Numbered from the stretch's first letter, positions 18,908 through 52,898 are shown. The stretch is DNA of 64,000 nucleotides from Planctomycetota bacterium (GCA_014240375.1 JAAZXB010000012.1:15829-79828), one strand, 5' to 3'. Numbers and translations are program-made. The notes: generated from the sequence alone by a model not told the origin.

Positions 18908-18983
18908 GCCGGTGTAGCTCAGTTGGTAGAGCAAAGGAATCATAATCCTTGGGTCCGGGGTTCGAGTCCCTGCGCCGGTACCA
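18908..18983 (+). tRNA. tRNA-Met (anticodon CAU), elongator-like, CCA encoded
   Basis: I folded the cloverleaf by hand. The D arm is GCTCAGTTGGTAGAGC, the anticodon loop is AATCATAAT (CAT at 34-36), the T arm is GGTTCGAGTCC, and the acceptor stem is 7 bp with two G-U pairs. It resembles elongator tRNA-Met. Confidence 0.8.
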
Positions 18984-35305: not shown

Positions 35306-35578
35306 ATGCCGAGACGCCGCCATGGTGGAGCCGGGAGAGGCTCCGAACCCGATGACGCCACCGATCAAGATGCCGCAGGCTGGCTTCTCGATGGCCTGGC
35401 GATCCGTCCGCCTCTCGAGGAGTTCCGGCGACTGTTCGAGATGAAGAAGAGAGCTTTTGAAGGCAAGGTCGATGCCGAGAGTTTACGCAAGTACGAGCAG
35501 GCGCGTCGTCTCGGAGAGAAATTCATCGCAGAGCAGGACTACGACCAGGAGACGGGTCCGAGGGGGGCGTCTTGCTGA
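35306..35578 (+). CDS. Small hypothetical ORF (doubtful)
   Basis: 90 codons with no recognisable family and rare codons (tta, aga). It overlaps the likely ribosome binding site and start of the next gene. It may simply be a 5' UTR. Confidence 0.2.
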   Translation: MPRRRHGGAGRGSEPDDATDQDAAGWLLDGLAIRPPLEEFRRLFEMKKRAFEGKVDAESLRKYEQARRLGEKFIAEQDYDQETGPRGASC

Positions 35579-38500
35579 TTCGCAGCCTTCGAGCCGAGGG
35601 ATTCTTGAAGTTCAGAAAACTTCGTATCGATAATTTTCCCCGTCGCGCCCTGATCGGAATTGTCGGACCCAACGAGAGTGGCAAATCGAGTATCGGGCAA
35701 CTGTTCCAGTTCGCTCTCTTTGGTTCAACCCATCACATGGTGCGCGGTTCGATCACCGACTTGATTCACTGGGACGATGATCATTGTGTGGTCGAACTCG
35801 ATTTCGAACATGCCGATGAAGGGTATCGGATCTGGCGCGAGATGGACCGCTTCGGCACCTCCTTTGCGCGACTGGTTCGGATCGACAAGTCGGGGGGGCC
35901 GCCGGGTGAAGAGATCGCCTCGGGAGCACTCCAGGTGCAGCGAGAAGTGCAGAGACGCTTTCACCTCGGCGCCGGAGAAACGATGCACTCCTTCTACCTG
36001 GCAGAGCGGGAATCGGTCACCACCCCGGAGCAGTTCAGATCCTTCCTCGATCGGGTGGCGGGAATCGATGTGCTCCAGGGAGCACGGGGAGAAGCGAGTC
36101 AGGCCCTCGATCTGCTGGAGAAAGATTTCACCTCGGTGCAGGAAGAGATCCACCGCAATGACCTGCACATTCAGCGTCTACAACCCAATATCGACAAGAT
36201 TCCAGATCTCGAAGAGGAACTGAAGGTCAGAGATTCCAAGGTCGAGGAAGCTCGCGCTCACGGGCGTGAGATGCAACGACTGGTGGAGCAGGAACTGAAA
36301 AAGCGTGACGAGGTTCAGAAGATCCAGCTCGAATTGCGATCCATCGATACTCTGATCGCTTCCGAGTCGCTGAGAAAGAGCAATGGCTTGATCGGGTTGC
36401 TACAAGCGGACCTGGCTCCGGAGCCTTTGCGCGACCAGGATTCCATCATCACTCCGCTGCGCGATGGATTGGAGCAGGTCTCCGATGCATGCAAGATCCG
36501 CGCAGAACTCGAGCAATGCGTGATCGACTCCATCGAGTCGTTAAAAGCACGTCTCGAAGGAGATCAAGAGGGGTCGATTGGCACCGAGAAAGAACTCCAG
36601 GAGCAAGAGATTCGCAACTCCTCGACCTCGCGGGTGCGCCATCGCGCAGGAGCCTTGGTGCTCTTCATCGCTGGCTTGGTGGGGATGGTGCTTGGCCTCG
36701 ATCTTGAACTGGACTGGGGAATCGGCCAGAAGATTCAATTCCTGGCCCAGATGGAGCCGGAAAAGGGGATCGGATTTCTGGTGGCTGCATTCTTTGCCTT
36801 CCTCTTCGTCGCTGCCTGTTGGTTGTCGACCCGCGCATCTCAATGTCTTCAGAAGACCTTCGATGCTCAGGGCATCCTGTCGCGATTGCAGATGGAGCAG
36901 AATGTCGGAAACAGTTCACTGGAAGCGGCGAGGGCGCATGTGTCCCGTTCATCGGGTGGGCTCGATCCTGGCGACGACATCGGAGAATGTCGGGTCCGTT
37001 CTGTACAAGAACACCTGGAATCTTTACGTGCTGCTCGCCGTGAGATCCACGGAGTCATGGGCGATCTGCCAGGCGAATTCTTGGCGGGGAAGTTGAAGAG
37101 TGCACTCGATCGAGTGCGCGCGACCCTCAAGGAGCGTCGTAAGTCGATGGATGAGTCCAGTGACTCGGTCAAACGCCTACGCTCCAAGAGTGATCGCATC
37201 CAGTCGGAGATTCGTGAGTATCAGAATCAGGACGGGCGTCGCCAGGCGTTGTCCGAGGTTTCTGACGGGAGTCGCAAGAAGTCACTGGCGATTCGCGATG
37301 AGATGGACATTCATCGACTGCTGGTCGAGTTGCTCGATGAAACCATCGAGTCGGTGCGGATGCGTGCTGGTCCCAGTCTTGGCAAGGGACTGTGCCGACT
37401 GCTGCCGCATCTGACCGGCGGCCGCTACCGTGATGCTCAGGTGACGCCAGAGTTCGAGATCCGTCTCTTCACTGGAGATAAGAGTGATTTTCTCCAGACT
37501 CATGAGCTTTCAGGGGGCACCTTGCAGGGGCTTTCCTTTGGCTTCCGTCTCGCCTTTGCCCAGGCTTTTGTGCGGGCGGTCACGGGTGCGCCACAGTTCC
37601 TCTTCCTCGATGAACCGTTCCCAGCGATGGACCGTGAGCGAGTCTTGCGAACCCTCCAGGCACTTCCACGTTTGAGTCAAGAATTGAGCCAGGTGATCGT
37701 TGCGCATCCCGATCTGGATCCCGCAGCTCGTCAGAGTTTTGATCTGTTGATCGAGACCGATCAATCTTCCGACCGGCTCGAGATCGATCTGGAGGATATG
37801 TCTCTGCCAGAGGTCTCTGCCCCTCGACGAGAACCGGTACAGATGAGCCCCACGATCCCCAGAAGTGAACCTGCCGCTCGTCGGGAGTCCGCGTCACGTC
37901 GAGAGTCCAGACCACGTCGCGATTCTGCTCCGCATCGCGAGTCTGCGCCACGTCGCGATTCTGCTCCGCATCGCGAGTCTGCTTCGCGAGGAGAGTCTGC
38001 GCCACGTCGGGAGTCTGCGCCACGTCGGGAGTCAGCGCCGCGTCGCGATTCTGCTCCGCGAGGAGAGTCTGCGCCACGTCGGGAGTCTGCGCCACGTCGA
38101 GAGTCTGCGCCACGTCGAGAGTCAGCGCCGCGTCGCGATTCTGCTCCGCGAGGAGAGTCTGCGCCGCGAGGAGAGTCTGCGCCGCGTCGCGATTCTACTC
38201 CGCGAGGAGAGTCCGCGTCACGTCGGGAGTCTGCTCCGCGTCGAGAGCCTTCTCCGCGTCGCGATTCTGCTCCGCGTCGAGAAGCCGGTTCCGGTCGAGA
38301 GTCCGCGGGACCACCGATCGAGTCGGATGACACCACTCGGCCCGCCAGATCCAGCGGCGACGATGGTCGCCGCCGTAGAGAAGCACGCAGTAACGAAGCA
38401 CGCAGTAACGAAGCACGCAGTAACGAAGCACGCAGTAACGAAGCACGCAGTAACGAAGCACGCAGTAACGAAGCACGCAGTAACGAAGCACGCAGTAACG

Positions 38501-39150
38501 ACCGACGAGAGCCTTCGCAAACGGCTCCATCGGACAAAGCAGTCGACGATTCGAGGAGACGTCGGAAGCCGCAGTCGCCCGCCGCATCGTCCGCCGCATC
38601 GTCCGCCGCATCGTCCGCTGCATCGTCGGCAGAATCGTCGGCAGAATCGTCGGCAGAATCGTCGGCAGAATCGTCGGCAGAATCGAAACGTGAAATGAGT
38701 TCGCGTAAGCCTGTCCGGGATGGCCGATCGAACGCCACTCCCGAGAGGAGGGGATCCGCGGCCCGCGAACCGCAACCCCAGACCACGGAAGATGCCGCCG
38801 AGTCTGGTACGCGCCGCCCGGCAAAACCGTCGAAACGACCTGCAGAGAAACGACCTGCAGAGAAACAATCTGCAGAGAAACGACCTGCAGAGAAACAATC
38901 TGCAGAGAAACGACCTGCAGAGAGACGACCATCCCCCGACTGGCCGAGTTACGCCGACTCGAAGCGAGGGCCCGACCCGGAGGCGAAGCCTCGTTCGCCT
39001 GCGGCGGCGAAGCCTGCCCGCAAGGAGTCGCGACAGCAGAAGCCTCCCGCTGCGGCACCCGAGTCCCCTCCGGCGGCCTCGACCCCTCCGCCAAAACGAT
39101 CTGCCATCAGCGACTTCAAGCCCGATGACTGGACGATTCCGGAAGCATGA
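35572..39150 (+). CDS. Rad50/SbcC/SMC-like ABC ATPase with transmembrane hairpin in the coiled-coil region and a ~400-aa low-complexity repeat tail
   Basis: TTG start with GAGGGGGG 6 nt upstream. The N-terminal head has LKFRKLRIDNFP...IVGPNESGKSS (Walker A, AAA_23/SMC_N-type). The C-terminal head has THELSGGTLQG (signature motif) and FLFLDEPF (Walker B/D-loop). Between them are coiled-coil-like segments and two hydrophobic helices (ALVLFIAGLVGMVLGL, IGFLVAAFFAFLFVAACWL) near nt 36640-36840. The tail is encoded by four tandem-repeat arrays: ESAPRR-like about 24 times, EARSN 8 times, AASS/AESS 9 times, KRPAEKQSAE about 3 times. Confidence 0.8.
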   Translation: MLIRSLRAEGFLKFRKLRIDNFPRRALIGIVGPNESGKSSIGQLFQFALFGSTHHMVRGSITDLIHWDDDHCVVELDFEHADEGYRIWREMDRFGTSFARLVRIDKSGGPPGEEIASGALQVQREVQRRFHLGAGETMHSFYLAERESVTTPEQFRSFLDRVAGIDVLQGARGEASQALDLLEKDFTSVQEEIHRNDLHIQRLQPNIDKIPDLEEELKVRDSKVEEARAHGREMQRLVEQELKKRDEVQKIQLELRSIDTLIASESLRKSNGLIGLLQADLAPEPLRDQDSIITPLRDGLEQVSDACKIRAELEQCVIDSIESLKARLEGDQEGSIGTEKELQEQEIRNSSTSRVRHRAGALVLFIAGLVGMVLGLDLELDWGIGQKIQFLAQMEPEKGIGFLVAAFFAFLFVAACWLSTRASQCLQKTFDAQGILSRLQMEQNVGNSSLEAARAHVSRSSGGLDPGDDIGECRVRSVQEHLESLRAARREIHGVMGDLPGEFLAGKLKSALDRVRATLKERRKSMDESSDSVKRLRSKSDRIQSEIREYQNQDGRRQALSEVSDGSRKKSLAIRDEMDIHRLLVELLDETIESVRMRAGPSLGKGLCRLLPHLTGGRYRDAQVTPEFEIRLFTGDKSDFLQTHELSGGTLQGLSFGFRLAFAQAFVRAVTGAPQFLFLDEPFPAMDRERVLRTLQALPRLSQELSQVIVAHPDLDPAARQSFDLLIETDQSSDRLEIDLEDMSLPEVSAPRREPVQMSPTIPRSEPAARRESASRRESRPRRDSAPHRESAPRRDSAPHRESASRGESAPRRESAPRRESAPRRDSAPRGESAPRRESAPRRESAPRRESAPRRDSAPRGESAPRGESAPRRDSTPRGESASRRESAPRREPSPRRDSAPRREAGSGRESAGPPIESDDTTRPARSSGDDGRRRREARSNEARSNEARSNEARSNEARSNEARSNEARSNEARSNDRREPSQTAPSDKAVDDSRRRRKPQSPAASSAASSAASSAASSAESSAESSAESSAESSAESKREMSSRKPVRDGRSNATPERRGSAAREPQPQTTEDAAESGTRRPAKPSKRPAEKRPAEKQSAEKRPAEKQSAEKRPAERRPSPDWPSYADSKRGPDPEAKPRSPAAAKPARKESRQQKPPAAAPESPPAASTPPPKRSAISDFKPDDWTIPEA
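37870..38930 (+). repeat. Four adjacent in-frame tandem repeat arrays (18-bp x~24 at ~37870-38300; 15-bp gaagcacgcagtaac x8 at 38379-38500; 12-bp gccgcatcgtcc/gcagaatcgtcg x9 at 38581-38686; 15/30-bp cctgcagagaaacga/caatct at 38836-38926)
   Basis: Read directly from the sequence. The unit lengths are all multiples of 3. The long minus-strand ORFs across this region are repeat artifacts. Confidence 0.9.
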
Positions 39151-39911
39151 GCCCATCAGGAACTGCCACGGTGATCGATTCGACATCCACTCGTCGATGC
39201 ATCATCGCAGCGGACTTGCACTGCGATGGGTCGGCGCGGCGGCTGGCGATGCTGGAGGCTCTTTTGCGCAGCTGTCGCCAGCTGGATGCGAGTTGTTACC
39301 TGCTCGGAGACCTGTTTGACGTCTGGCTTGGACCGGGACAGTTGGCTCTCCAGCAGACGCGTCGGGAAGTGGAAGCCTTGCAACGTGCGGTGGCTGCGAA
39401 CATCGATGTGGTGGTGATTCCGGGAAATCGCGACTTCTTGCTCGACGAAGCGTTCGAACGTGCCACCGGGGTGGTTGTCGGGGGCGATCATCTATTGCTC
39501 GAGACCGGCGATCAACGGTGGCACCTGTCCCATGGAGACCTGTTCGGTACAGCCGATGTCGGATACCAGCGCCTTCGCAAGATCTTGCGAAGCGGACCGT
39601 TCCGAATGCTGGTTCGCCACATGCCGCTGCTGTTGTGTCGCGCCCTCGCCACTTTTTTGCGTCGTCGTTCTCGCAAATCTTTGCAGCGCAAGGATCCGGC
39701 GCGGATTCAGCCGGACCTGCAGGTGATCGGGCAACTGGTGGAGAGCGGTTTTGACCAGGTGGTGTGTGGCCACTACCATCGACCCAGTGAGGAATTTCTG
39801 GAGCGGGGGGGGAGTTGCGGAATCTTCACCGTTCTCGAGGCGTTCGAGGATCGCGGGGCCCATCTCTTCATCGAGGACGGAGTGGTGGAACTCCGATACC
39901 TTCCGTCATGA
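39147..39911 (+). CDS. LpxH-like calcineurin-type metallophosphoesterase (UDP-2,3-diacylglucosamine hydrolase family)
   Basis: The motifs are AADLHCDG, LGDLFDVWLG, GNRDFLLDE, SHGDLF and GHYHR. The GDLFDxW plus GNRD pattern matches LpxH rather than SbcD/Mre11, which have GDxFD plus GNHD. The start overlaps the ATPase stop (ATGA); an alternative GTG lies about 24 nt downstream. Confidence 0.7.
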   Translation: MSPSGTATVIDSTSTRRCIIAADLHCDGSARRLAMLEALLRSCRQLDASCYLLGDLFDVWLGPGQLALQQTRREVEALQRAVAANIDVVVIPGNRDFLLDEAFERATGVVVGGDHLLLETGDQRWHLSHGDLFGTADVGYQRLRKILRSGPFRMLVRHMPLLLCRALATFLRRRSRKSLQRKDPARIQPDLQVIGQLVESGFDQVVCGHYHRPSEEFLERGGSCGIFTVLEAFEDRGAHLFIEDGVVELRYLPS

Positions 39912-48353: not shown

Positions 48354-48881
48354 GTGACGAAATCTCATTCAAACATGCTTCCGGTCCGAGTGATGGTTCA
48401 TGACTCGATGCAAGAGGGCTACATTTATCAGCGGACAGTCGCCGTGGGGAAGAAGTTCGATCCTGAATTTGAACCGGAACTGACACCTCGACAGATGCTG
48501 GAACTGGGGGTTTTCGGTGGCTGTTACATGACCGATTGTCGCGACGAGTTCCCGGACTCGTGGTTTCGAAAGGCCAAGTTGTCGCCCGGGATTCCCGATC
48601 CTCAACTCAATTTGTTCAAGATTCGTGCCTCGCAGCCTCTACGCGAATGGTATGTCCGTGGCTGGATAGATGAGAATGATCCGCGCGGTTGGTTCCAGTG
48701 GTATTGCAGGTACTACATGGGGCGTCGTGGCGAAGATGACGCCCGACAGATTCGTCGTTGGCGACAGATGCGTCGTCATCGTAGTCAGGTGGTCAAGAAC
48801 TGCGCGCCGGGTGACCTGGATTGTCGTCCCCGCCAACGACAGGCACTTCTTCACTGGGCCTATGATTCGCGCCAGTTCTGA
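48354..48881 (+). CDS. Hypothetical conserved-looking protein (Trp/Arg-rich, 175 aa)
   Basis: Long ORF with coding-like composition. GTG start; alternative ATG 48375. No family recognised. Confidence 0.45.
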   Translation: MTKSHSNMLPVRVMVHDSMQEGYIYQRTVAVGKKFDPEFEPELTPRQMLELGVFGGCYMTDCRDEFPDSWFRKAKLSPGIPDPQLNLFKIRASQPLREWYVRGWIDENDPRGWFQWYCRYYMGRRGEDDARQIRRWRQMRRHRSQVVKNCAPGDLDCRPRQRQALLHWAYDSRQF

Positions 48882-48899
48882 TGGAGTTGGAGCCGCAAC

Positions 48900-49538
48900 T
48901 CAGTGATCGGGTTGGTCCTTGAGGGTCAATTGGCGCAGCAATTCGCGGCTCGCTTCCAGTACTTCTGGGTGTGCTAGCGGTTCGAGCGAGTCGAGTAGTT
49001 CCTTCAGTTCGGACGCTTTTACGCCGGTTCGTAATGCGCCGCGAAGATGGGAGTGCAACGGGCTCATTCGCCCCTGGCCGATCAGCGAGGCGACCGCCAG
49101 CGATTCGATCTGGGCGGCTCCGAACCACGACGAGTCCATCACCGTCTGGTAGGCGAACTGTTCGATCCAGGATTCGAGATCGGGGTGTCGCTTTCGAAGT
49201 GAGTCGAGAACCCGTTCTCGTGCAGTTCCGTAGACGCTGTCGAACAGACCTGTAGCCCTTGCTGAAGAAGTGGGGCGTTGTGAAGATGCTGTGGGGTAGC
49301 GCTCTCGAAGCCAGCCGAGTGCTTCCACCGCAGCAGGAAAACCACTGTAGGGGATCGATTGAAGAATAGTTTCTTCCACTTCTTCGGCGGTGTGATGATG
49401 AAGAGAGCGTGAAAGGGCGGTTTGGACTGCCAGCCGCTCGGGGGCAGCGAGGGCAAAGGATAAGTGGCAGCAGCTGAGGTTCTTCATGCAGAAAGAATAA
49501 TCAGCGATGCTCGCCACATCCAGAGTTGTGGATCCCAC
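48900..49538 (-). CDS. Hypothetical protein (possibly carboxymuconolactone-decarboxylase/AhpD-like helical fold)
   Basis: ORF of 212 aa. ILQSIPYSGFPAAVEALGWL is reminiscent of CMD-family helices. The codon usage is somewhat atypical, so this is a weak call. Confidence 0.35.
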   Translation of the reverse strand: MGSTTLDVASIADYSFCMKNLSCCHLSFALAAPERLAVQTALSRSLHHHTAEEVEETILQSIPYSGFPAAVEALGWLRERYPTASSQRPTSSARATGLFDSVYGTARERVLDSLRKRHPDLESWIEQFAYQTVMDSSWFGAAQIESLAVASLIGQGRMSPLHSHLRGALRTGVKASELKELLDSLEPLAHPEVLEASRELLRQLTLKDQPDH

Positions 49539-49600
49539 TTGCTGAAGACACTGCAGCGGTTTAGTCTCATCGAACGGGCTGGGGAAAGAGGGGGGAGTGA

Positions 49601-50428
49601 ATGTCGAATCGACGTCGAGATGTTAGGATTGCATTCATCAACCAGAAGGGCGGTGTCGGCAAGACGACGCTGACCCTCAACTGTGCGGTGGGTTGGGCGA
49701 GACTCGGCTATCGCGTGTTGATGATCGACCTCGACCCCCAGGCGCACCTGACTCTCTCCCTTGGCGATTCTCTGGCCGAGGGCAGCCTCGAACGAATTGA
49801 ACACAACACCATCGAGTCGGCCTTGCGACGTGAGAAACCACTGGCGGAGTGTATCTTCGAGGTCGCTGGCGAGGGGGTGTCGCTGGTACCGTCCCATATC
49901 GACCTTTCCGGTGCCGAGGGGGAACTCTCGCAGGAACTGGGTCGCGAAATGTTGCTTCGCGATGCTCTCGACACCCTCGAAGATGACTTCGATCTGATAC
50001 TTCTCGATTGTCCTCCCTCCCTTGGTCTGCTGTCGCTCAACGCACTTGCCGCCGCAGACGAGGTGGTCGTTCCGGTGCAGGCGGAGTACCTGGCATTACA
50101 GGGTATGGCTCAGTTGATGAAGATCATCACGCTGGTCCAGGAGCGGCTCCATCCCGGCCTCAAGTGGAACGCGGTGGTGCCGACGATGGTCGATCCTCGC
50201 ACGCGACTTTCGCGCGAGGTGGTCGAGGAACTCCGACGCCATTTCCCCGATCAGTTGACCCGCACGCAGATCCCTTCGCGGGTCAAGGTGGCGGAGGCAC
50301 CATCTTTTGGAGTGTCGATCTTTGGTCATGACCCGCACGGTCCCGCTGCCGGTGAGATCGAGGACCTGTGTCTGGAGCTGGTCGAGCGGTTATCGCTCAC
50401 CCTGGCCGAGCGAGATATCGTCATCTGA
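49601..50428 (+). CDS. ParA/Soj/MinD-family P-loop ATPase (orphan ParA)
   Basis: Deviant Walker A (INQKGGVGKTT), Walker B (LILLDCPPS), and a Soj-like length. No ParB gene is adjacent. Confidence 0.85.
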   Translation: MSNRRRDVRIAFINQKGGVGKTTLTLNCAVGWARLGYRVLMIDLDPQAHLTLSLGDSLAEGSLERIEHNTIESALRREKPLAECIFEVAGEGVSLVPSHIDLSGAEGELSQELGREMLLRDALDTLEDDFDLILLDCPPSLGLLSLNALAAADEVVVPVQAEYLALQGMAQLMKIITLVQERLHPGLKWNAVVPTMVDPRTRLSREVVEELRRHFPDQLTRTQIPSRVKVAEAPSFGVSIFGHDPHGPAAGEIEDLCLELVERLSLTLAERDIVI

Positions 50429-50509
50429 CCCTTCAGTTCTCACTTCGGAAGACCGAAGAGTGGTGTAGAGACTCACACACCACCCGGAACAGATCAGTCA
50501 GGAGGCCAC

Positions 50510-50743
50510 GTGGCCAAGTCACTCAATCAAGAAGAACTCGAGTTTGTCCGCGCCATCGAGGAATACAAGAAGCAGAACGATAAGTTGTTCCTTTCCTGGA
50601 CAGAAGTGCTCGGAATTGCCAAGCGATTGGGGTACAGCCGCCCGGTCCAGTCACGAACCGGATCCGCCCGATGCGGCGCCGCGCCGACCAAGGCTACCCG
50701 CAAGGCGGCGGCCAACGGAGACGGCAGCAAGAAAGCGTCCTGA
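50510..50743 (+). CDS. Small protein (77 aa), helical N-terminus plus basic disordered tail; candidate ParA partner
   Basis: GTG start with AGGAGG 6 nt upstream, 81 nt after the parA stop. The sequence is MAKSLNQEELEFVRAIEEYKKQNDKLFLSWTEVLGIAKRLGY followed by a K/R/A-rich tail. Confidence 0.5.
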   Translation: MAKSLNQEELEFVRAIEEYKKQNDKLFLSWTEVLGIAKRLGYSRPVQSRTGSARCGAAPTKATRKAAANGDGSKKAS

Positions 50744-51045
50744 AGCGGGAACCCCACCATCCCCACCCTGCTTCTTCCCTGAACCTCTGGATCGCTTTGG
50801 CCCCACCGGGTGCCAGAAGCGCTCCAGAGGCTCTTTTTAGCCCCTCCACCGTCGATTTCGGTAAGTCGTTACCTTGGCAGGGGAAAGGGCAATTCTGCTC
50901 GTTGCGGGAGCGTCCACTGCGTGCTAGCCTCGATTGTCACAAACCCGTATGCCACAGGGGTCTACAGGATGAACCCCTGAATTCAAGGTGGCTCGATCTC
51001 GACGGTCGATGGGGCGGGTGTATTGTTGAAGAAGGAGCTCGCTCC

Positions 51046-51381
51046 ATGAATACCATCACCAAGCGTGATCTGGTCCAGCGGATCTCCGAAAATACCAAAG
51101 TCCAGCAGCAGAAGGCCAAGGAAGTGATCCAGGGTTTTCTCGATGAAATCATCAAGGAACTGGCTTGCGGGAATCGTCTCGAGTTCCGAGACTTTGGCGT
51201 CTTTGAACCGAAATCAAAAGCACCCCGCACCGCTCGGAATCCGCGCACTGGTGCCCGTATCCAGGTGCCCGAGAAGGTCACGGTCAAGTTCAAGGCGGGT
51301 CGCATGATGAAGGAAAAGATGCAACCGGCTACCGAGAGCGGGTCAGACCCTTCCAGTCCTCCTGCGCCACCGGCTGTTTAG
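51046..51381 (+). CDS. HU/IHF family DNA-binding protein with Pro/Ser-rich C-terminal extension
   Basis: GAAGGAG 8 nt upstream. MNTITKRDLVQRISE...GFGVFEPKSKAPRTARNPRTGARIQVPEKVTVKFKAG has the HU arm motifs. The tracked ORF was trimmed by 125 codons. Confidence 0.85.
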   Translation: MNTITKRDLVQRISENTKVQQQKAKEVIQGFLDEIIKELACGNRLEFRDFGVFEPKSKAPRTARNPRTGARIQVPEKVTVKFKAGRMMKEKMQPATESGSDPSSPPAPPAV

Positions 51382-51384
51382 AGG

Positions 51385-52569
51385 GTGACACCGGTCGAGG
51401 ATCGCCCGCTGATTCCCGAGGTAGCCCCTGCGGGAGCAAAGGGTGTGGTTCATCCCTGGCGCATCGCTCTTTCATCTCCGGATATCGATCACCACGACCG
51501 TGCTGCCGTCGATGCCGTTCTGCGGAGTGGCCGACTCGCGGGTGGTCCTGCCATCGGGCAACTGGAACAACTCGCCTCTGACACCTTCCGTCGACCCACC
51601 GTCTCCTGCAGTAGTGGCACCGCAGGTCTGATACTGGCCTTGCGTGCACTCGGTGTTTCGGGGGGGGAGGTGATCACGCCGGCTCTCGGATTCATCGCCA
51701 CGGCCCACGCCATTCGTGCCGTCGGTGCCACGCCGCGCTTCTGCGATGTCGATCGCGAGACGCTCTGCGTCGGCCTCGAGCAACTGGAGGCGGCCTGGAG
51801 TGATGATGTCAGTGCGGTGATTCCCGTCGATCTGCTCGGAGTCCCGGTGCCCATCGACGCCATCGTCGAGTGGGCGAAACAGCGCGCTGTTCCGGTCATC
51901 GAAGATGCCTGCGAGGCGCTCGGGTCTCGTCACGGTGACAGTCCTTGCGGCGCTGCCGCCGATGCCGCGGTGTTCGGTTTTTACCCCAACAAGATCATCA
52001 CGATGGGCGAGGGGGGGCTGGTCAGTTGTCGCGATCAGCCGCTCGCCGATCGGGTGCGGCAACTGGCCAACCAGGGCCGCACCGCCGCCGGCTTCTGCTT
52101 CGAGGGGGAGGGCTACAACTTCCGCCTGACCGAGATGCAGGCGGCGCTCGGTGCCAGCCAGTGGCTTCGTCTCGACGCTCTGATCGAGCGACGGCAGCAG
52201 CTGGCCCAGTTGTATCTGGAGCGGATCGAGGCGATCCCGGGAGTCATTCCTGCACCGGCACCGACCCGCATCGATGAGGGGGACCGCCGCAGTTGGTTCG
52301 CCTTTGTCGTGCTGCTCGAAGATTCTCGCTGGCGGACTCCGTTACGCGATGCGATGGCCCAGCACGGCATCGAGACCGGTCTCTACTTCCCCTCCATCGC
52401 CACCTTTACTCCCTACGACGAGGCTCCAGCGGCAGCGCTTCCCGTCACCGAACAGATCTCGCCGAGGATGCTCGCCTTGCCGCTGCATCCGCGATTGAAG
52501 CCGGCCCAGATCGACGAGGTGGTGGCGACGCTGGAGGAATCGCTGGGGCGCATCCGGCTCGAGGGGTGA
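51385..52569 (+). CDS. DegT/DnrJ/EryC1/StrS family PLP-dependent sugar aminotransferase
   Basis: DAVLRSGRLAGGP, the AVFGFYPNKIITMGEGG region, and the overall length. GTG start 3 nt after the HU stop. Confidence 0.75.
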   Translation: MTPVEDRPLIPEVAPAGAKGVVHPWRIALSSPDIDHHDRAAVDAVLRSGRLAGGPAIGQLEQLASDTFRRPTVSCSSGTAGLILALRALGVSGGEVITPALGFIATAHAIRAVGATPRFCDVDRETLCVGLEQLEAAWSDDVSAVIPVDLLGVPVPIDAIVEWAKQRAVPVIEDACEALGSRHGDSPCGAAADAAVFGFYPNKIITMGEGGLVSCRDQPLADRVRQLANQGRTAAGFCFEGEGYNFRLTEMQAALGASQWLRLDALIERRQQLAQLYLERIEAIPGVIPAPAPTRIDEGDRRSWFAFVVLLEDSRWRTPLRDAMAQHGIETGLYFPSIATFTPYDEAPAAALPVTEQISPRMLALPLHPRLKPAQIDEVVATLEESLGRIRLEG

Positions 52570-52705: not shown

Positions 52706-52779
52706 GGGTCCTTAGCTCAGCTGGTTAGAGCGACGGACTCATAATCCGTTGGTCGCAGGTTCGAGTCCTGCAGGACCCA
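52706..52779 (+). tRNA. tRNA with CAU anticodon, most similar to lysidine-type tRNA-Ile2 (alternatively Met)
   Basis: The hand-folded cloverleaf has a perfect 7-bp acceptor stem (GGGTCCT/AGGACCC) and the anticodon loop CTCATAA. The sequence closely tracks E. coli ileX as I recall it (UUAGCUCAG..GGUUAGAGC..ACUCAUAAU..UUGGUCGC.GGUUC.AGUCC). CCA is not encoded. Confidence 0.75.
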
Positions 52780-52898
52780 CACCTTTATCCAACCCCATCT
52801 GGTGAGTGGTCGACATTTTACGTCGTTCGCAGAGCGATCCTGTAGGACCCACACCTTTTTCGCTTCTTGCTGCACCCTGCGAGAGAGGATTCCTCGGT

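Follow-up and report, generated by a model that had tools for sequence, protein, structure and literature searches.

Which protein does a ParA-type ATPase work with if no ParB gene lies next to its own gene? This question is raised by a locus within a stretch of 64,000 nucleotides (nt) from a Planctomycetota bacterium (GCA_014240375.1, JAAZXB010000012.1:15829-79828; the whole stretch is referred to as the window), in which parA is followed by a small gene for a protein of 77 amino acids (aa) and, further downstream, by a gene of the HU/IHF family (hup). ParA ATPases need a partner that specifies what to move, and an earlier note on this DNA had proposed that the ATPase and the small protein form an A/B-type positioning pair. 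We favour, at a rough probability of 0.45, a different reading, namely that the small protein is an HU-linked nucleoid-associated protein which was drawn into the parA operon in the clade of the window. It is ranked before a direct ParA partner, a split ParABS system and a transcription-related factor, in this order. The reading is based on the constant link of the small gene to HU and the frequent one to ParA, the operon structure, the combination of two helices with a basic tail, the positive charge observed family-wide, the complementary tails of HU, the Soj type of the ParA and the native origin of the locus. An unannotated two-helix domain occurring throughout the Planctomycetota, its invariant pairing with HU in one subfamily and its recruitment to a parA operon without adjacent ParB appear to be new.

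The locus is composed of the following features:
48900-49538, minus strand: CMD-family gene, upstream flank of parA
49601-50428, plus strand: parA, encoding a 275-aa Soj-type deviant Walker A ATPase; complete open reading frame (ORF), Pfam AAA_31 1.2e-53
50500-50505, plus strand: AGGAGG Shine-Dalgarno motif of the small gene, 4 nt before its GTG start, read from the sequence
50510-50743, plus strand: small gene with GTG start, 77 aa; residues 1-44 form the two-helix domain, residues 45-77 a disordered Lys/Arg/Ala/Ser tail
50781-50833, plus strand: intrinsic-terminator-like hairpin, followed by TTTTT at 50834-50838; predicted to end the parA-small gene transcript before HU
51046-51381, plus strand: HU/IHF-family gene, encoding 111 aa whose C-terminal end is a short Pro/Ser/acidic tail; Pfam Bac_DNA_binding 3e-28

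These coordinates agree with the earlier description of a complete Soj-type parA followed 81 nt later (counted from its stop to the next start) by a small gene with an AGGAGG motif, flanked by a CMD-like gene and HU. At the same place, relatives carry a purine-rich motif of the GGNGG type, as seen from the upstream in-frame translation ending with '..GG.'. No terminator-like site was returned by the terminator scan between parA and the small gene. The HU start is situated 302 nt downstream of the small gene, and the 107-nt segment 50744-50850, which includes the hairpin, reaches -40.7 kcal/mol (z = -4.4 compared to shuffled sequences). Due to its loop of more than 8 nt, the hairpin at 50781-50833 was overlooked by the simple terminator scan. 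In relatives a GC-rich hairpin of different sequence, often accompanied by a T-run, occurs at the same position. Since a terminator is lacking between both genes and a conserved hairpin with T-run follows the second one, parA and the small gene are predicted to form a bicistron in the clade of the window, with hup being transcribed separately. The GC content of the locus matches that of the window, as expected for native DNA.

For the comparison of gene order, a subfamily termed FLSW was defined here by an N-terminal domain of ~44 aa with a short low-complexity tail and the pattern M-x-x-x-[LF]-x-x-[ED]-E-[LF]-x-F-[VIL]-x-A-[IV]-E-x-[YF]-K-x(5)-K-x-F-L-S-W-[TS]-E-V-L-x-[IV]-x-K-x-L-G-Y. The small protein of the window fits this pattern, with 1.3e-41 against the A1 hidden Markov model (HMM), which includes the window protein, and 6.4e-24 against the A2 HMM. 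The wider subfamily was surveyed in metagenome contigs with an A3 alignment, which gave 61 loci that were scanned with HMMs for ParA, HU, a TPR/peptidase protein, ParB and the two-helix domain. HU adjoins the small gene in 39 out of 39 FLSW loci in which the flank on that side measures 0.7 kb or more; six FLSW loci without HU have no more than 0.64 kb of flank and are uninformative. Two arrangements were found, the one of the window with parA(+), small gene(+) and hup(+), and a commoner one with parA(+), TPR/peptidase gene(+), small gene(-) and hup(+), in which the small gene and hup are transcribed away from each other and have a common intergenic region of 300-500 nt. The latter is also present in L066, whose ParA is 46% identical to that of the window. 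As HU adjoins the small gene in both orientations, their link survived an inversion.

ParA was observed in the neighbourhood of 17 out of 21 FLSW loci with enough flank, and is thus a less steady companion of the small gene than HU. In two of the remaining loci (L123 and L115) hup, the small gene and the TPR/peptidase gene are kept with ThiL directly after them and without parA; in L126 the order of CMD-family gene, small gene and hup is kept and parA is gone, and L108 retains hup and the small gene only. Among genome loci, ParA is situated near the small gene wherever it is at least 56% identical, and additionally in L066. In 12 out of 12 species-level genome loci with a ParA at least 76% identical, parA is followed by the small gene at a distance of ~80-150 nt, as it is in further metagenome contigs. 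Besides the clade of the window, at least one deeper relative (L124) has this tight operon. A gene of ~430 aa separates parA from the small gene in the sister clade (L019-L026; ParA 56-59% identical). The products of this intervening gene (L019-L026, L066, and L096-L128) are ~430-485 aa long and are characterized by a hydrophobic N-terminus, TPR repeats and Peptidase_MA_2/DUF1570; the gene is absent from the locus in the clade of the window and from the 64-kb window as a whole. Synteny of parA and the small gene, which the earlier note had made the touchstone of the pair, therefore holds among close relatives, whereas across the subfamily HU is the steadier neighbour.

Most sampled members of the domain family are not located near ParA, and the synteny described above was found in the FLSW subfamily only. 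Four sampled members of other subfamilies (P0215, P0207, P0187, and P0275) and a member on an Aquisphaera plasmid are near neither ParA nor HU; the types sampled comprise two-domain and Arg-rich FPTW proteins of Caulifigura and Planctopirus as well as proteins of other metagenome-assembled genomes.

The small ORF is a real gene, based on its nearly invariant homologues, a low ratio of nonsynonymous to synonymous substitution rates (dN/dS) and more than 1000 profile-matched clusters. In 14 close homologues the N-terminal 44 aa are nearly invariant and the Lys/Arg/Ser/Thr/Ala tail is variable; for codons 2-44, dN/dS ranges from 0.04 to 0.15 at a dS near or above 1, i.e., near saturation. In the AlphaFold2 model (101-row alignment), helices are formed by residues 7-23 and 30-40 with a predicted local distance difference test (pLDDT) score of ~96, and residues 45-77 have no secondary structure (pLDDT 57-67), which bears out the helical N-terminus and the disordered Lys/Arg/Ala-rich tail described before. 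Of the 33 tail residues, seven are K or R and one is acidic. A resemblance of the N-terminus to ParG or to the ribbon-helix-helix (RHH) fold, brought up by the earlier note, is not supported, as an N-terminal strand is missing from the model and Pfam gave no RHH match. Neither a conserved basic nor a ParB-like ParA-activating peptide of the 'LGxGL' type is present at the N-terminus of the small protein, where K, R, or N is found at position 3 and the sequence begins with 'ML(D/E)SLS' in the wider subfamily. Conserved peptides that are basic or of the 'LGxGL' type were seen in ParB and in small partners of other ParAs of the same data set. In a fused chain of ParA and the small protein, modelled by AlphaFold2 with an alignment for ParA only and read out by pLDDT only, scores were >90 for ParA, ~80 for the small helices and <50 for the linker.

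The small protein has no match in Pfam, PHROGs, or PADLOC, and no solved structure similar by sequence or fold was found in the PDB. Its sole NCBIfam match is to form II RuBisCO and lies below the threshold (E 0.01). Residues 7-38 (50510-50620) align with the last 32 residues of the form II RuBisCO 5C2C, and the striking pattern F-x-x-A-x-E ... DKLF-x-x-W-x-E-x-LG is common to this C-terminus and the domain. Homology was set aside, since the E-value of 5C2C fades from 0.0018 with a narrow profile to 0.015 with a broad one, and the resemblance is probably due to chance or to convergence of a helical hairpin. A mobile, phage, or defence origin of the small gene was rejected as well, given the native GC content and the lack of any PHROGs, PADLOC, or phage match; the single plasmid match of the family, in Aquisphaera, is located away from ParA.

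A profile search against 1.84 billion representatives at E <=1e-3 retrieved 1349 clusters, and the broader profile (A2) 2999 clusters at 90% identity. The few A2 members named in their sources go by 'hypothetical' or 'uncharacterized', no Pfam domain was found among them, and every organism named in the A2 family is a planctomycete (Caulifigura, Planctomicrobium, Thalassoglobus, and Planctopirus). The domain comprises ~40 aa with the consensus [ED]-E-[LF]-E-F-[VIL]-x-A-[IV]-[ED]-x-[YF]-K-[KR]-x(4,5)-[KR]-x-F-[PL]-[ST]-W-[ST]-E-V-L-x-[VI]-x-x-x-L-G-Y-[RK] and occurs once or twice per protein; in many of the members listed it is preceded by an Arg-rich N-terminus of the type 'DRRxGxDRR'. Regions outside the domain carry a net positive charge in 69% of 273 proteins, and their K+R fraction has a median of 21%. 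A single fusion was seen, P0143 (345 aa), in which STAS and sigma-70 region 2 precede the two-helix domain, the latter occupying the place of sigma regions 3/4.

Across distant loci the core of HU is visibly near-invariant, and the C-terminal tail of most copies is acidic or Pro-Ala-rich. In the window and in L091-L143 these tails are of low complexity, with acidic stretches or (A/P/E) repeats of up to ~90 aa, and their charge is opposite to that of the small-protein tail. Upstream of HU, a conserved element of the form 'TCGGTAAGTC-N(about 14)-AGGGGAAAGGG' was detected, which in the window is located at ~50855-50893, i.e., 165-188 nt before the HU start. The element is shared by 23 loci of the clade of the window and of deeper window-type relatives (e.g., L124), is absent from the remaining 46 HU loci whose upstream sequence is long enough, and may represent a promoter or leader element of hup.

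Taken as a nucleoid-associated factor, the small protein could act as follows. An older neighbourhood would have consisted of parA, the secreted TPR/peptidase gene, the small gene and hup, with the link between the small gene and HU as its invariant part, and the parA-small gene operon would be a clade-specific tightening of it. The helical hairpin of 40 aa is presumably too small to fold alone and would dimerise, probably as a four-helix bundle, and the Lys/Arg-rich tail may be in contact with DNA, with the acidic tail of HU, or with the two together. ParA would dimerise upon ATP binding and bind to the same nucleoid. An additional role of the small protein as local partner or activator of ParA is possible and is regarded as an optional step which the evidence does not require. 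The reality of the small gene, the structure of the operon, the family, the class of fold and the counts of gene order are results of the analysis, and dimerisation of the small protein, its binding to DNA or HU and its contact to ParA are inferred.

Some observations weigh against this proposal. The two-helix domain itself is slightly acidic with nearly invariant Glu residues, so DNA binding would depend on the poorly conserved tail. Moreover, relatives have the gene order of the entire ThiL-DegT block in common, and part of the linkage may therefore reflect inherited gene order instead of function. Finally, the fusion to STAS and sigma-70 region 2 in P0143 hints at a transcription-related role.

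The ATPase itself appears to be an ordinary ParA that is chromosomal and vertically inherited. It is assigned to the ParA/Soj family, of which it has all defining features that can be tested on a sequence. Pfam scores are 182 bits for AAA_31 (cut-off 27) and 84.5 bits for CbiA (cut-off 25.4; 7.9e-24), PHROG 164 ('ParA-like partition protein') is matched with 5e-60, and the deviant Walker A motif NQKGGVGKTT at residues 14-23 includes the signature lysine. The best solved relatives are 8RAY, deposited as 'ParA family protein' (182 bits), and Soj of Thermus, 1WCV (175 bits), followed by the M. smegmatis-type ParA and H. pylori Soj (134-138 bits), with the cargo and plasmid types McdA (53 bits) and ParF (48 bits) far below. 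In the alignment with Thermus Soj, the Arg segment 'VDPRTRL' corresponds to 'YDGRTLL', the region in which the DNA-binding arginine of Soj is located. From this conservation, ATP-dependent dimerisation and non-specific DNA binding are predicted. No second ParA-like ORF was found in the 64-kb window.

Identities of the best 120 ParA homologues range from 46% to 100%, and all source names given for them belong to the Planctomycetota. In a neighbour-joining tree all planctomycete ParAs form one clade beside the anammox ParAs, and the ParB-linked ParAs of other phyla fall elsewhere. The ParAs linked to the small gene make up two groups, and the unlinked ones of L030, L032, L068, L071, and L154 are placed between them. 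ParAs of the sister clade (L019-L026) have long low-complexity C-terminal extensions, with a total length of 294-532 aa, which are absent from the 275-aa ParA of the window. L012 (QNYK01000010.1, 'Bacillota bacterium'; ParA 89%) and L025 (JAFMMO010000077.1, 'Proteobacteria bacterium'; ParA 58%) also carry the planctomycete arrangement of ParA and small gene, and we presume that these bins are probably mislabelled or mis-binned.

In case of the anammox ParAs (37-41% identical; L036-L064 of Scalindua/Brocadiaceae), a protein of 150-220 aa is encoded directly downstream, which begins with 'M(Q/A)KK(N/S)xLGxDP(L/F)xWLK'. In loci of Atribacterota, Actinomycetota, and Ignavibacteria, the small protein following ParA begins with 'MAKKERLGSDPFKGGSLGWIQDT'. 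Both types of N-termini, seen in these loci including L028, L031, and L033-L035, resemble ParB-type ParA-interaction peptides and are situated on partners other than ParB.

The absence of a ParB, gid, or oriC-type context, pointed out in the earlier note, is supported by the scans of the window. The ParB HMM, which was built from eight ParB genes adjoining other ParAs in the same scan and recovers these eight and one paralogue, had no match in the 64-kb window or in any planctomycete locus examined. For parS (TGTTNCACGTGAAACA-like), 0 matches with up to 3 mismatches were obtained in the 64 kb. Iterated centromere repeats are lacking in 48800-51500, where only two- and three-copy short repeats at chance level were seen. 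Cultured Planctomycetia are annotated with ParB/Spo0J genes. The literature on ParB and nucleoid proteins in Planctomycetes yielded nothing that settles the presence of ParB in this lineage.

Compared to known systems, the ATPase is closest to Soj of Thermus thermophilus (1WCV/2BEJ), to which it aligns over almost the full length. Both have the Walker A signature lysine and a 'D-x-R-T' Arg segment and are similar in size, and neither has an N-terminal helix-turn-helix (HTH). The locus is nevertheless not a canonical chromosomal ParABS locus, as adjacent parB, nearby parS and the gid/oriC context are missing and the downstream gene encodes a 77-aa two-helix protein instead of a ParB CTPase of ~290 aa. 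With the type Ib systems ParF-ParG of TP228 and delta-omega of pSM19035 it has in common an operon in which the gene for a small ATPase precedes that for a protein of less than 100 aa with a compact module and a flexible charged tail. However, the partner is no RHH protein, its tail is C-terminal in contrast to the N-terminal tail of type Ib partners, iterated repeats are not found nearby, the context is chromosomal and syntenic, and the score to ParF is far below those of the Soj types. The locus is thus not a type Ib ParA-RHH pair.

McdA-McdB, PpfA-TlpT, and PomXYZ likewise combine an orphan ParA-type ATPase with a small, partly disordered charged protein. Here, in contrast to McdAB, no genes for an organelle, a receptor array, or other cargo are located nearby, and the small protein has no similarity to McdB in sequence or fold and tracks HU instead of an organelle operon. 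Together with the low similarity to McdA this sets the locus apart from an McdAB-like cargo pair. The signature lysine of the Walker A motif, which type 1 McdA is said to lack, is present. Similarity to ParABS, type Ib, and McdAB systems is therefore confined to the general build of a small ParA with a small, partly disordered charged protein. With small nucleoid-associated proteins consisting of a dimerisation module and a basic tail, the small protein has in common the tiny helical module, the Lys/Arg-rich disordered tail and the location beside a housekeeping HU. No homology to described nucleoid-associated families was found in Pfam, NCBIfam, or the PDB, and DNA binding is predicted only.

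A true A/B pair would mean that the small protein is a dedicated ParA adaptor and ATPase activator which replaces ParB and marks either the chromosome, via DNA or HU, or an unknown cargo. The adjacency on which this proposal was founded is real, ancient and predicted to be co-transcribed: the operon is tight in the clade of the window, the ParA neighbourhood persists down to ~45% ParA identity, and no ParB is located beside any planctomycete ParA examined. ParA partners are normally encoded next to ParA, and a dimerising module with a basic disordered tail is a common build among them, e.g., in ParG and McdB. Since HU is tracked more faithfully than ParA, the commoner order places the small gene on the strand opposite to parA with an unrelated secreted-protein gene in between, ParA can be lost, as in four loci that kept the small gene and HU, and the ParB-like peptide is missing, the pair is weakened. 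Furthermore, the unlinked ParAs of the same clade named above have no small gene within 6-10 kb, centromere-like repeats were not found in 48800-51500, and cargo genes are not evident. We regard such a pair as possible, though rather unlikely. Less probable still is a split canonical system, in which the ATPase would be an ordinary chromosomal Soj with ParB and parS encoded elsewhere and the small gene would be merely co-transcribed and unrelated to partition. This fits with the closeness of the ATPase to 8RAY and the chromosomal Soj proteins of Thermus and, at a distance, H. pylori, and with its position in one Planctomycetota-wide ParA clade. As none of the ParAs of this clade has an adjacent ParB, a split may even be the norm in the phylum. 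It leaves unexplained, however, why the small gene stays near ParA across a deep divergence and then joins it in an operon, and the lack of parS in 64 kb adds a weak argument against it.

A transcription-related factor, e.g., a protein regulating the HU gene beside it or an accessory module of the sigma/anti-sigma type, without a structural role in the nucleoid, would be in line with the common intergenic region of divergent small gene/HU pairs, with the domain order of P0143, and with the conserved element upstream of HU. Yet the protein consists of two helices only, without a recognisable HTH or RHH, the upstream element is limited to the clade of the window while the pairing of the small gene with HU is much older, and the fusion is a single example. 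This explanation is considered highly improbable. The HU-linked nucleoid protein is preferred for the reasons given at the outset.

Planctomycetota include budding bacteria that lack FtsZ. To our knowledge, chromosome segregation in planctomycetes is essentially unstudied, their nucleoid proteins other than HU are essentially unknown, and few types of ParA partners have been described beyond ParB. It is tempting to speculate, although we consider it decidedly unlikely, that one large lineage of the Planctomycetota possesses a ParB-independent module for partition or organisation, in which a Soj-type ParA acts on DNA marked by the two-helix protein and the acidic-tailed HU. If so, ParA adaptors or nucleoid proteins of a new class would be defined by the domain of ~40 aa, whose paralogues in the phylum would number in the thousands. 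Planctomycete nucleoids are unusually condensed (PMC3440768). A small protein that binds DNA or HU and communicates with ParA would provide a handle on the organisation and segregation of these chromosomes; if it does not, the analysis still describes a conserved domain that is new, together with a robust HU-linked gene pair that merits annotation.

The neighbours of the locus include, besides the CMD-family gene and HU, an aminotransferase gene and a DegT-family gene. No Rfam element was found in the intergenic regions of the locus, the only Rfam matches of the window being two tRNA-Met (CAT) genes at 18908-18983 and 52706-52780, both on the plus strand. The second of these is located ~140 nt past the DegT-family gene that follows HU. 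Elsewhere in the window, an SbcCD-like pair is encoded at 35572-39911 on the plus strand, consisting of a 1192-aa AAA_23/SMC_N/SbcC-like ATPase followed by a 254-aa metallophosphoesterase.

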